25,359 bases of DNA, from positions 1 to 25,359 of the forward strand of contig JAUPVY010000001.1 in the NCBI GenBank assembly GCA_030916785.1. Reading direction: 5' to 3'. The position numbers and the translations under genes were made by a program. Shown in pieces: positions 9,967 to 23,585 of the stretch (its first letter is position 1; every line of letters starts with the position of its first letter). A model generated the notes under the pieces. The model was not told the origin of the DNA, ran no database searches, and was given only the letters and a program-made list of their open reading frames with translations. The DNA is from Patescibacteria group bacterium (GTDB lineage: Bacteria > Patescibacteriota > Minisyncoccia > Phycocordibacterales > DATDWN01).

Positions 9967-10584
9967 ATGAAAAATAAATTAATTATCAAAACTGTAGTTA
10001 TTTTTTTCTTTATTATTTCTTCCTTTTTGATGATGTATCCTGCATGTAAATCTTTAGTCATTAATGGTGGTTTAGGTTCTGGTAATTCTGTGGTTTTTTC
10101 TGTTAATTCACAAAATATTCAATCTATTCTCCGTCCGGTTGGTTTTCCAATAATATCAGAATTTGAAAGTTACAATATTGATATCTCTAATCTAAATAAT
10201 AAATATGATATTTCTTACATACTAACCTTCGATGATAATGATCCTATATTAAATTATATAGATAATATTGCCAGTTCATCAGAAGTAGGTATGACTGATA
10301 AAATAAATTTTCCAATAGCCCCTGGAAAATCTTACAAGGTCAAAGATATACCAATAAATATAGCAATGACAGATAAATTCGGAAGTCTGTCATTATGTGG
10401 GTTTAATTCTGCTACATCTAATTGTCCAAATAATCTAGAACAACTTATGGAAATAAGTCAAAAAAATATAAAAATTTTTGCTTGCCCTAATATTGAGCAT
10501 AGAATCTTAATTGTTGAGTTTATCTTAATTTGTGTGTTTTGGGTTTTGGCATTTAATAGTTTTTATGAATTTTTGAAGAATTAA
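9967..10584 (+). CDS. Hypothetical membrane protein with N- and C-terminal TM helices (start probably MKNKLII)
   Basis: Open AT-rich frame with two hydrophobic segments; start chosen before the first TM helix. Confidence 0.55.
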   Translation: MKNKLIIKTVVIFFFIISSFLMMYPACKSLVINGGLGSGNSVVFSVNSQNIQSILRPVGFPIISEFESYNIDISNLNNKYDISYILTFDDNDPILNYIDNIASSSEVGMTDKINFPIAPGKSYKVKDIPINIAMTDKFGSLSLCGFNSATSNCPNNLEQLMEISQKNIKIFACPNIEHRILIVEFILICVFWVLAFNSFYEFLKN

Positions 10585-10588
10585 AATA

Positions 10589-11203
10589 ATGGAAGATTAC
10601 TGGTATTACACCCTAAGTGCCATTCCTCAAACACTTGCTGCGGTAATTGCGTTGGCCGCTGCTTTTACTACACTGAAACTAGATTATATTTCAAAAATAA
10701 TAAAAGAAACCAGAATAGATTTACGTAGGTTTATATTGTTAACAACATCAAAGTTAGATATAAAAGAAATACACACAATTGAGCCATTAAGTGATAAGGA
10801 GTTTCTTAAAGTTTTTAAGGAGGGCCTATCATCCTTAGATGAGCACAATCATCAATTAGGATTAACATCTGACATGTTTAATAAGTATTCAGATGAAATG
10901 TTTAGAATAATCAATAAAGATTGGAACAGTAGATATGGTCCAGATGATTTTAGAGTTTTCGGTTATTTAAAGATGAAAAAGGAAATTTTTGAGAAATTGA
11001 TAGAACAAAAAGATGAGATAATTTATTTGATGACATCTAGTTTAATTTTAGTTGGTTTTGTAATAACAGTATCACTGATAATATTACCATCCTACAATTG
11101 TTTTAATGGTTCAAAATTATTAGTGTATGGTATTGTTACAGGCTCTGTTATAAGTATTATAGTAACAATATTGAGTATTTTGAAAATAGTGAAGAGTGAG
11201 TAG
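10589..11203 (+). CDS. Hypothetical membrane protein (1 N-terminal and 2 C-terminal TM helices)
   Basis: 204-aa ORF starting 4 nt after the previous stop; hydrophobic segments at both ends. Confidence 0.7.
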   Translation: MEDYWYYTLSAIPQTLAAVIALAAAFTTLKLDYISKIIKETRIDLRRFILLTTSKLDIKEIHTIEPLSDKEFLKVFKEGLSSLDEHNHQLGLTSDMFNKYSDEMFRIINKDWNSRYGPDDFRVFGYLKMKKEIFEKLIEQKDEIIYLMTSSLILVGFVITVSLIILPSYNCFNGSKLLVYGIVTGSVISIIVTILSILKIVKSE

Positions 11204-22004: not shown

Positions 22005-22409
22005 TCATTTTGAGTGGTGATGGGGACGTTCAGACAGTTTGTTTTTTATATCTCTAATATCATGTTCTATTTTATCTAACTCGTTTTCTACTCGTTTTAA
22101 CTCCGATCCTTCGGATTTGATTTCATCTTCAGTTTTTTCAACCAGTTTTTTCTCTCCTTTGAGTCCGCTGATGATAAGACGACTTCCAATAAATGTTGAT
22201 ACAAAAGCACCACTGAGTAGTAACATAATACTTCCAATGATTATAGATGCAAGTGCGCTTATGTTTGCTTCGTCTGCGATATGCCAAACACCTCGCCAGA
22301 AAAGAACAACTCCAATGCCACCAACCAATGCGTACAAAAGAGGGTTTTTACTAAGTTGTGCTCGTATTTTGTCTTCTAATACATCAAAAAAATGAATGAT
22401 TCCTTTCAT
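22005..22409 (-). CDS. Hypothetical membrane protein with a C-terminal coiled coil
   Basis: GGIGVVLFWRGVWH, two TM helices; extended -10 box 7 nt upstream. Confidence 0.8.
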   Translation of the reverse strand: MKGIIHFFDVLEDKIRAQLSKNPLLYALVGGIGVVLFWRGVWHIADEANISALASIIIGSIMLLLSGAFVSTFIGSRLIISGLKGEKKLVEKTEDEIKSEGSELKRVENELDKIEHDIRDIKNKLSERPHHHSK

Positions 22410-22463
22410 GATATATAGTGTAGCATATTTGCGTCAGATGTCTTGCCAGTATAGAATTGAATG

Positions 22464-23585
22464 ATGAAAAATTACATGGTGAAATGCCGAAATGGACTTA
22501 TTCGGTTTGCATATAAAGGTATTTTGAAACCTCTTTTTTTTAGACGAGATCCGGAAGATGTTCATGACGCAATGACGAGGGTTGGTGTTATGTTGGGTGC
22601 ACATGCATTTACTCGTACTATAACTCGATGGAAATTCGGTTATTCCGATTCATCATTACAACAACGTATTTGGGGAATTACATTTCCTAACCCAATTGGT
22701 CTTGCTGCTGGGTTTGATAAAGACGCTGAATTAACATCTATCATACCGTCGGTTGGTTTTGGTTTTGAGGAGATCGGTTCTGTCACTGGACTACCATGTG
22801 CAGGAAACCCCAAACCGCGACTGTGGCGACTTCCAAAGTCTCAGGGTTTGGTTGTGTGGTATGGTCTAAAAAATAAAGGGTCAAAATATATATCAGAAAA
22901 GTTACGAGGCAAAAAATTTCAATTTCCCATAGGTACAAGTGTTGCTATGACAAATTGCTCGGCTAACCTGGACATAACCACGGCTATTTCAGATTATCAT
23001 ATGGCATTTGAAGCATTCACTACTATCGGCGATTACTATACAGTTAACATCAGTTGCCCAAATGTAACCGGTGGGCAACCGTTTGTTGAACCAGAAAAAC
23101 TGGATTTGTTACTGACTGATTTGGATACAATTGTTACCGCCAAGCCTATCTGTATTAAACTGTCACCTGACATCTCGCTTGATGAGCTGGATCAGATTTT
23201 AGTTGTTGCAGAAAAACACAGGGTGCATGGAATTATCTGCGGGAACTTAACAAAAAATAAAGACAATAAGCGCATTATAGACAGTAACCTTTCAGAGCAT
23301 GGTGGTATTAGTGGCAAGCCAACAGAAGAATTATCAAATGCGTTGATTTCGCATATATACAAATCAAAAAAAGACAAGTTTGTGATTATTGGATGTGGAG
23401 GAGTTTTTTCTGCAGAAGATGCATACAAAAAAATCAAATCAGGTGCATCACTTATTCAGTTGATTACCGGGATGATTTTTGAAGGACCTCAGGTTGTAAG
23501 CGAGATTAATTGTGGACTTACTGACTTATTGAGACGTGATGGTTTTTCATCTATTTCCGAGGCGGTTGGGGTTGATTCACGGTAA
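22464..23585 (+). CDS. pyrD: Class 2-like (quinone-dependent) dihydroorotate dehydrogenase homologue with altered substrate motifs
   Basis: RDPEDVH, FPNPIGLAAGFDK, GNPKPRL, KLSPD, GGISGKP, IIGCGGV, GASLIQ. Start is 22461 or 22464. Confidence 0.88.
   Translation: MKNYMVKCRNGLIRFAYKGILKPLFFRRDPEDVHDAMTRVGVMLGAHAFTRTITRWKFGYSDSSLQQRIWGITFPNPIGLAAGFDKDAELTSIIPSVGFGFEEIGSVTGLPCAGNPKPRLWRLPKSQGLVVWYGLKNKGSKYISEKLRGKKFQFPIGTSVAMTNCSANLDITTAISDYHMAFEAFTTIGDYYTVNISCPNVTGGQPFVEPEKLDLLLTDLDTIVTAKPICIKLSPDISLDELDQILVVAEKHRVHGIICGNLTKNKDNKRIIDSNLSEHGGISGKPTEELSNALISHIYKSKKDKFVIIGCGGVFSAEDAYKKIKSGASLIQLITGMIFEGPQVVSEINCGLTDLLRRDGFSSISEAVGVDSR

Follow-up and report, generated by a model that had tools for sequence, protein, structure and literature searches.

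Introduction

Class 2 dihydroorotate dehydrogenases (DHODHs; PyrD, EC 1.3.5.2), with solved structures from Escherichia coli (1F76), human (1D3G), Helicobacter pylori (6B8S) and Mycobacterium tuberculosis (8OFW), contain an N-terminal helical domain that forms the quinone tunnel. The class 1A enzymes, such as Lactococcus lactis PyrDa and Trypanosoma cruzi DHOD, are soluble, lack this domain and reduce fumarate at the same site in the second half-reaction. A Cys residue serves as the acid in this step, and the equivalent Cys does so in the reduction of uracil by dihydropyrimidine dehydrogenase (DPD). The gene described here lies in a 25,359-nucleotide stretch of an ultra-small Patescibacteria group bacterium (contig JAUPVY010000001.1, assembly GCA_030916785.1; the whole stretch analysed is termed the window) and encodes a DHODH-like flavoenzyme. 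The protein shares with class 2 DHODHs the Pfam family, the fold, a length of ~370 aa, the N-terminal quinone domain with its His and Arg, the lysines that bind flavin mononucleotide (FMN) and three substrate Asn residues. It differs by a Cys in place of the catalytic Ser and by the substitutions Asn145 to Val, Asn181 to Ser, Thr285 to Leu and Tyr356 to Ile (human numbering). Its clade is not the dihydroorotate dehydrogenase of pyrimidine synthesis, and its members recurrently appear with VKOR or DsbB.

VKOR and DsbB are quinone-dependent thiol oxidases that are joined to redox partners in several known systems, including VKOR-thioredoxin fusions, VKOR/MdbA pairs (Synechococcus, Actinomyces oris) and the E. 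coli DsbB chain. In E. coli, electrons pass from DsbB to quinone and from there to terminal oxidases or, under anaerobic conditions, to fumarate or nitrate reductase. The clade described here resembles these systems in joining such an oxidase to a redox partner. In the known VKOR fusions, however, the partner is the electron donor on the outside, whereas in the fusions of this clade it is a cytoplasmic flavoenzyme on the quinone side; the window copy itself is unfused. A literature search found no paper on DHODH of the candidate phyla radiation (CPR) or DPANN archaea, on this clade or on VKOR-DHODH fusions, and its matches were ferroptosis papers only.

Results

A class 2-type scaffold with a remodelled substrate pocket

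The source genome of the window (G000) comprises 576 kb in 88 contigs and is 73.5% complete. The first-pass annotation, which was made from the sequence alone, had placed a PyrD homologue with a class 2 scaffold at 22464-23585. The stop was correct, and the open reading frame (ORF) opens at the adjacent upstream ATG, at 22461; position 22464, the second of the two adjacent ATGs, and position 22476 are alternative starts. The scaffold assignment is borne out by profile searches and by the predicted structure. The protein matches PF01180 (DHO_dh) with 215 bits in a Pfam search and exceeds the equivalog cut-offs of two NCBIfam models for quinone-dependent DHODH, TIGR01036 (288 bits against 200) and NF003652 (336 bits against 267). 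Eight sister NCBIfam models score under their cut-offs. The class 1 DHODH models reach 91-96 bits only, against cut-offs of 269-301, and the PreA model gives a weak match of 45 bits. The closest solved structures are class 2 enzymes (H. pylori 6b8s, rat 1uum and human). An AlphaFold2 model, built with an alignment of 60 homologues as input, has a predicted local distance difference test score (pLDDT) of 97.8 and a predicted template modelling (TM) score of 0.95, and places three N-terminal helices ahead of the barrel. Foldseek comparison of this model with human, M. tuberculosis and H. pylori DHODH gives TM scores of 0.88-0.95. The query protein is thus a class 2-type DHODH homologue, with a predicted fold of high confidence.

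Residue equivalences were taken from HMMER alignments of the query protein to rat 1uum and H. pylori 6b8s and are given in human numbering; the roles assigned to the residues rest on these alignments and on published human DHODH contacts. At the quinone site, both His35 (human H56) and Arg123 (human R136) are retained, the latter lying outside residues 1-60. The GG motifs are also retained, along with Lys87 and Lys233. The substrate pocket is altered in the way that the first-pass annotation had read from the motifs, and the alignments to both structures reproduce every one of its substitutions (INR[MY]GFN to VVWYGLK, TNTT to GNLT, and NISCPN in the catalytic loop). Residue by residue, INRYGFN is replaced by VVWYGLK (N145V132, R146W133, Y147Y134, G148G135, F149L136 and N150K137), NVSSPN by NISCPN (S215C199, with N212 and N217 retained) and TNTT by GNLT (N284 retained, T285L263). 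Tyr356 and Thr360 are also replaced, by Ile335 and Ile339, respectively.

Among the residues that contact orotate and FMN, Asn212, Asn217 and Asn284 are therefore present and Asn145, Asn181 and Thr285 are replaced, which leaves the class 2 set incomplete; the Ser catalytic base of class 2 (NxSSPN) is absent as well. Nor does the protein fit class 1A. It shares the Cys acid/base with these enzymes, but it also possesses the N-terminal domain, its loop reads VVWYGLKN rather than NSMGLPN, the four Asn residues of class 1A are incomplete, and the match amounts to ~60-70 bits only. Human Asn145 contacts both FMN and orotate and has been described as essential for dihydroorotate binding (PMC12534982).

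The substitutions are shared by a monophyletic clade

The pocket of the query protein is not a private oddity. The best 120 homologues in a set of 5.8 billion proteins all contain NxSCPN, and nearly all of them contain a [VL]V[YWHN]YGLKN-type loop and xNLT. The best homologues carry the NCBI name quinone-dependent DHODH and belong to Taylorbacteria, Magasanikbacteria, Paceibacterota and Minisyncoccia. A scan of species genomes added DPANN archaea (Woesearchaeota, Nanoarchaeota/Nanobdellota and Pacearchaeota) at 44-55% identity; in the same scan, ordinary class 2 PyrDs start at ~38% identity to the query protein.

In total, 283 proteins were aligned and sorted on residues 132, 199 and 263. The sorting assigned 168 rows to the variant and 73 to the canonical Ser type; the 38 Cys-type rows in which Asn145 and Thr285 are retained were termed group B. 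In a FastTree phylogeny rooted on class 1, all 168 variant rows form one clade with Shimodaira-Hasegawa-like (SH-like) support of 97, and in an IQ-TREE phylogeny of 71 rows all 38 variant rows do so with an SH approximate likelihood ratio test value of 95. The query protein groups with all variant rows, including 22 fused to VKOR, and has Val132, Ser160 and Leu263 in common with them. The clade is distributed over Patescibacteria (CPR), DPANN archaea and a few Thermoleophilia. The archaeal rows are nested within the bacterial rows, with at least three changes between the two.

Positions 132 (Val versus Asn), 160 (Ser versus Asn) and 263 (Leu versus Thr) are the only ones that are conserved yet different between the clade and true PyrDs, and they set the 168 members of the clade cleanly apart from 106 PyrDs of the canonical or Cys type. 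Position 132 is Val in 92-93% of the clade and Ile in most of the remainder; position 160 is Ser in 80-100% of the variant rows and Asn in 94-99% of the canonical and Cys-type PyrDs. Lys265 is a new residue that is at least 90% conserved within the clade. Lys233, Asn196, Asn201, Asn262, His35 and Arg123 are conserved across both the clade and canonical PyrDs, at 90% or more on each side for His35 and Arg123. The clade divides into two subtypes: C1, which includes the query protein and keeps Lys87, and C2, in which Lys87 is replaced by Tyr and Tyr134 by Lys. In C2, the active-site lysine appears to have changed places with the tyrosine. Examples of C2 are found at L111 (G106), L138 (G207) and P0143, with the loop VNKGFK. 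Judged from these alignments and trees, the substitutions of the query protein are those of a monophyletic offshoot of class 2 DHODH.

The same conservation bears on whether the gene could be a decaying, functionless relic of a lost pyrimidine pathway, as might be supposed in reduced genomes from which the pathway is gone. This explanation is hardly credible. Homologues that are intact number in the thousands, the clade spans two domains of life, an alignment of 60 sequences with 36-64% identity has 25 columns without any variation (Cys199 among them), and the model is predicted at high confidence. Furthermore, G000 holds a second intact paralogue of 370 aa on contig C19 (L002:528-1640, + strand). 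This copy is 56% identical to the query protein and is of the same variant type (AVWYGLKN, NLSCPN and SNLT).

Two further observations concern membership. G024, from the same genus as G000, also has two variant copies. In Thermoleophilia, which are free-living Actinomycetota, basal clade members with NMSCPN, VVCYGVPNEG and INLPAGK were found (L073:9644-11101; L075 ~9992-11104); their neighbours, a methyltransferase, a SnoaL-like protein and CinA, are uninformative.

The clade is not the pathway enzyme

The first-pass annotation had pointed out that no other pyr gene lies in the window, and this holds for the whole of G000. No match to PF00215, PF02729 or TIGR00857 (orotidine monophosphate decarboxylase, aspartate transcarbamoylase and dihydroorotase) was found in that genome, and for pyrE only a generic phosphoribosyltransferase motif was present, with no credible match; pyrB, pyrC and pyrF are thus absent from the available sequence. 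Among 41 relatives, the variant is carried by 10 genomes, none of which has pyrC or a pyrE match above the cut-off. One relative, G012, has a compact pyrF-pyrE-pyrD-pyrC cluster with a class 1-like PyrD and no variant. Four others (G004, G011, G014 and G033) have only an adjacent pair of a pyrE-like gene and pyrF, which would salvage orotate; no PyrD was detected in them with the query protein.

An even draw of 401 genomes from the phylum, each at least 85% complete, contained 63 carriers after motif checking and 338 non-carriers. The pyrC gene is absent from 50 of the 63 carriers, and its presence is not associated with carriage (21% of carriers and 15% of non-carriers, p = 0.35). The 12 carriers in which pyrC is credible all possess a second PF01180 gene, of the class 1 or group B type, and in five of them (G124, G202, G287, G386 and G394) this second PyrD lies within ~2 kb of pyrC. 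A second PF01180 copy is likewise found in two Thermoleophilia genomes of 4 Mb that hold basal members of the clade. A complete pyrimidine pathway that depends on the variant was sought and was not found in any genome examined, and neither G000 nor the carriers show the class 2 situation of a PyrD that serves the de novo pathway with no other PyrD present. The clade therefore differs from class 2 DHODH in having no pyr pathway around it, and in being an extra copy where the pathway exists. It does not supply the dihydroorotate dehydrogenase step of pyrimidine synthesis. The comparative genomics supports the earlier proposal of a redox role, or another substrate, outside de novo pyrimidine synthesis, and the enzymes of the clade probably act on a different substrate.

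These data also bear on the possibility that the enzyme is a true quinone-dependent DHODH that acts on dihydroorotate scavenged from a host or the environment, either making orotate or feeding quinone, with the pocket changes as tolerated drift. The two equivalog cut-offs that the query protein passes, the retained Lys87, Lys233, Asn196, Asn201, Asn262 and catalytic loop, and a Cys base that works in real class 2-type PyrDs (see below) are consistent with such an activity, and in G124 carA, pyrB and pyrC are found at a distance of 4-8 kb from the variant. The residue described as essential for dihydroorotate binding, Asn145, is nevertheless mostly Val, and Asn181 and Thr285 are lost too. Most carriers have no dihydroorotase, and wherever a carrier has a credible pyrC, a further PyrD is present. 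Any orotate formed would lead nowhere in G000 and most carriers, which have neither pyrE nor pyrF. This explanation is quite unlikely.

Cys199 is not diagnostic of the clade

The first-pass annotation had counted the Cys of the catalytic loop as part of the remodelling. The residue is present, but it is not peculiar to the query protein, as it also occurs in bona fide class 2-type PyrDs. The group B proteins have a class 2 scaffold and the catalytic-loop Cys (INRxGLNN, NISCPN and NTS). They differ from the clade in keeping Asn145, Asn181, Thr285 and Tyr356, and in their setting in a pyr operon or as the sole PF01180 protein. In G238 (L106:6542-9846), the group B PyrD lies between pyrF and pyrC in the order pyrF-pyrD-pyrC. 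The group B protein is the only PF01180 match in the 3.6 Mb of a free-living Fodinibius (L042) and the only strong one in two Bacteroidota metagenome-assembled genomes. Further group B loci are L059, L077 and L085. Some group B proteins branch near the base of the class 2-like group in the rooted trees, and group B contains the phylogenetically nearest true PyrDs to the clade. Since Cys-type class 2 PyrDs occur in real pyr operons, where they serve as pathway enzymes, Cys199 is not diagnostic of the clade and was rejected as proof of new chemistry.

The Cys, which acts as acid/base in DPD and PreA as well, raises the possibility of a DPD-like enzyme that acts on uracil or thymine, which have no carboxylate, in pyrimidine salvage or catabolism. 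The weak PreA match points in the same direction, and the lost polar contacts could suit a substrate other than orotate. Against this, the protein retains the Lys that binds the carboxylate as well as the G-L backbone loop, and its fold and N-terminal domain are those of class 2 DHODH, not of PreA. Amidohydrolases of the dihydropyrimidinase type are likewise picked up by the pyrC model, and most carriers have none; the VKOR fusions described below would also be left unexplained. A DPD-like activity is very unlikely.

The clade is recurrently linked to VKOR and DsbB

An N-terminal VKOR domain is present in 10 of the best 150 representatives at 50% identity, and the fused proteins are 456-578 aa long. 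Six of the fused VKOR domains were aligned, and both the loop Cys pair and CxxC are present in all six. A search with the VKOR region of a protein annotated as candidate division WWE3, from a 536-kb contig, added eight further 90%-identity clusters, all with VKOR and DHO_dh, and fused ORFs occur in 5 genomes of the phylum sample. In all, 23 clade members are fused to VKOR. The 22 that were placed in the tree fall into 12 separate clusters, mostly C2 and one C1, which corresponds to at least nine gains or losses. Separate genes are also found close together: in G075 the distance between VKOR and the variant is 0.8 kb, and in G199 and G215 DsbB directly adjoins the variant.

At least one of VKOR and DsbB is encoded by 57 of the 63 carriers (90%) and by 148 of the 338 non-carriers (44%), an odds ratio of 12. 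In DPANN archaea, VKOR was found in three of five genomes that hold a homologue; the copy in one of these five (L037) is of group B, so that the proportion among true carriers is three of four. G000 itself encodes, on contig C12 (L173:1579-2525), a secreted thioredoxin-like protein (FWCPHC) followed immediately by DsbB, a DsbB/BdbC-type membrane protein with CDLC and a second Cys pair. Cytochrome bd was absent from all five carriers tested and UbiA-family prenyltransferase from four of five; neither a quinone prenyltransferase nor cytochrome bd was detected in G000. CPR genomes are known to be enriched in MdbA-like oxidoreductases, often adjoining VKOR, which has been read in terms of pilin folding, and the destination of the electrons was not treated (PMC6744442).

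Gene neighbourhood and features of the locus

In the window, the neighbours of the DHODH-like gene encode a DUF1003 protein, a small membrane protein, a HAD/PMM-like protein and a cupin. All-against-all clustering of ORFs from 34 variant loci found no conserved neighbour. A heavy-metal P-type ATPase family occurs in six of the 34 loci, and the immediate neighbours are unrelated from locus to locus (DNA ligase, HtrA, a methyltransferase and a PIN-ATPase). The gene neighbourhood was therefore dropped as a functional clue. The longer homologues were also set aside, as most of them proved to be eukaryotic fusions or canonical PyrDs extended by a low-complexity tail.

Several individual loci are recorded here. 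Three related loci (L017:1403-3719, L018:11970-14257 and L019:11140-13630) have the variant beside a MOFRL glycerate kinase and/or a D-2-hydroxyacid dehydrogenase, with iPGM in L019, and in P0271 the variant is fused to glycerate kinase. One-off fusions (P0121, P0131, P0272 and P0226) involve an N-terminal PAP2 phosphatase, a C-terminal cytidylyltransferase-like domain, an ApbA-type reductase and a 360-aa C-terminal extension that has no Pfam match. The small membrane protein of the window (22005-22409, - strand), divergent from the DHODH-like gene, has two helices and a coiled-coil tail that ends in HHH, and no Pfam match. A homologue is found in L021 (11793-12200), 0.7 kb downstream of the variant, which could be plain synteny. 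The features of the gene are listed in Table 1.

Table 1. Positions in the window of the DHODH-like gene and of its domain, loops and residues.
Feature	Positions	Strand	Basis and remarks
DHODH-like flavoenzyme gene	22461..23585	+	374 aa; ORF list, PF01180, TIGR01036, NF003652, AlphaFold2 model, Foldseek
N-terminal helical domain, class 2 type, residues 1-60 (helices 2-26, 31-46, 49-59)	22461..22640	+	DSSP of the model; alignment to rat and H. pylori enzymes
Lys87 (human K100), FMN/substrate-carboxylate lysine	22719..22721	+	Alignment; retained in the subtype of the query protein, swapped with Tyr134 in C2
Loop VVWYGLKN, residues 131-138	22851..22874	+	Val132 for orotate/FMN-binding Asn145; Lys137 for Asn150
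Ser160 for human Asn181, one of three clade-defining positions	22938..22940	+	Alignment
Catalytic loop NISCPN, residues 196-201	23046..23063	+	Cys199 at the class 2 catalytic Ser215 site; Asn196 and Asn201 retained
Lys233 (human K255), FMN-binding lysine, invariant	23157..23159	+	Alignment
NLTK, residues 262-265	23244..23255	+	Asn262 (human N284) retained; Leu263 for orotate-binding Thr285

Discussion

The altered pocket, the mostly pathway-free genomes and the repeated fusion to VKOR make another quinone-linked redox job probable for this clade. The reading favoured here, with a roughly even chance of being right, is that the query protein would be a quinone-coupled flavin oxidoreductase that works with the DsbB/VKOR disulfide machinery, possibly re-oxidising quinol, and not the pathway DHODH. 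A more specific version, which is put forward tentatively, is that the DHODH-like clade of CPR and DPANN may be the terminal enzyme of a minimal two-step chain in which electrons pass from extracytoplasmic thiols through VKOR or DsbB to scavenged quinone, and from there through the flavoenzyme to a soluble acceptor.

In this proposed chain, VKOR or DsbB would make extracytoplasmic disulfide bonds and reduce membrane quinone, which is probably scavenged from a host. The flavoenzyme would then draw electrons from quinol and deliver them by way of its FMN to a small, soluble acceptor, for whose reduction Cys199 would donate the proton. The quinone could thus be regenerated in a cell with no respiratory chain, by a class 2 DHODH that would have reversed its role, oxidising quinol and acting as a reductase on a new substrate. 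Re-oxidation of quinol is the most economical scheme, because VKOR and DsbB only reduce quinone and no other quinol oxidiser was seen in these cells. The chemistry would parallel that of class 1A DHODH on fumarate and of DPD on uracil. For the acceptor, a fumarate-like enoate or O2 would be no more than candidates; orotate is unlikely on redox potentials.

Several points weigh against quinol oxidation. The canonical reactions of VKOR and of class 2 DHODH both reduce quinone, so that a common quinone or membrane anchor, rather than a relay, could explain the fusion. We know of no demonstration of quinone in any of these organisms. The query protein still passes two curated DHODH equivalog models, and the gene context supports no candidate acceptor. 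The window copy is stand-alone, with neither fusion nor adjacency to VKOR or DsbB at its locus; VKOR was not found in G000, and the DsbB of this genome lies on contig C12. An HMM (hidden Markov model) search found no VKOR or DsbB in the flanks (1.5-10 kb) of 32 other variant loci. Fusion or adjacency is seen in ~13% of carriers only, six carriers have neither VKOR nor DsbB, and the co-occurrence test ignores shared ancestry, which inflates the figure.

The reduction of quinone by both fusion partners in their known reactions also suits a further explanation, in which the enzyme would work in the usual class 2 direction on another substrate: a small cytoplasmic carboxylate would be oxidised and quinone reduced, so that, for example, a pool of scavenged quinone would stay reduced as a membrane antioxidant or a quinol user would be supplied, and the VKOR fusion would mark a shared quinone site or anchor rather than an electron relay. 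The conserved quinone-tunnel residues and the carboxylate-binding features of the remodelled pocket are consistent with this direction, as are the minority loci beside glycerate-branch genes and the single glycerate kinase fusion. However, the carriers tested yielded no enzyme that consumes quinol (cytochrome bd is absent from them), and no conserved neighbour hints at a donor. Quinone reduction alone would also stall the DsbB or VKOR that is present in 90% of carriers. Oxidation of a carboxylate at the expense of quinone is thus rather unlikely, and a quinone-coupled partner of the disulfide machinery remains the preferred reading.

The present analysis contributes the recognition that stand-alone and fused copies belong to one clade, the three residues that define it, the test that a second PyrD is always present where the pathway is, the VKOR/DsbB co-occurrence figures, and the DPANN and Thermoleophilia members. 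For enzyme evolution, the clade would provide a natural case of retargeting by three active-site changes. Thousands of CPR and DPANN genes are publicly named quinone-dependent dihydroorotate dehydrogenase, and metabolic reconstructions read from them a pyrimidine step or a quinone pool; if the clade has left the pyrimidine pathway, such annotations are wrong. CPR bacteria are rich in DsbB/VKOR/MdbA-type machinery (PMC6744442) and have no respiratory chains to take up the electrons, and the clade is a testable candidate for this link. If the proposal is correct, organisms that lack a respiratory chain could keep forming disulfide bonds in their pili and surface proteins.

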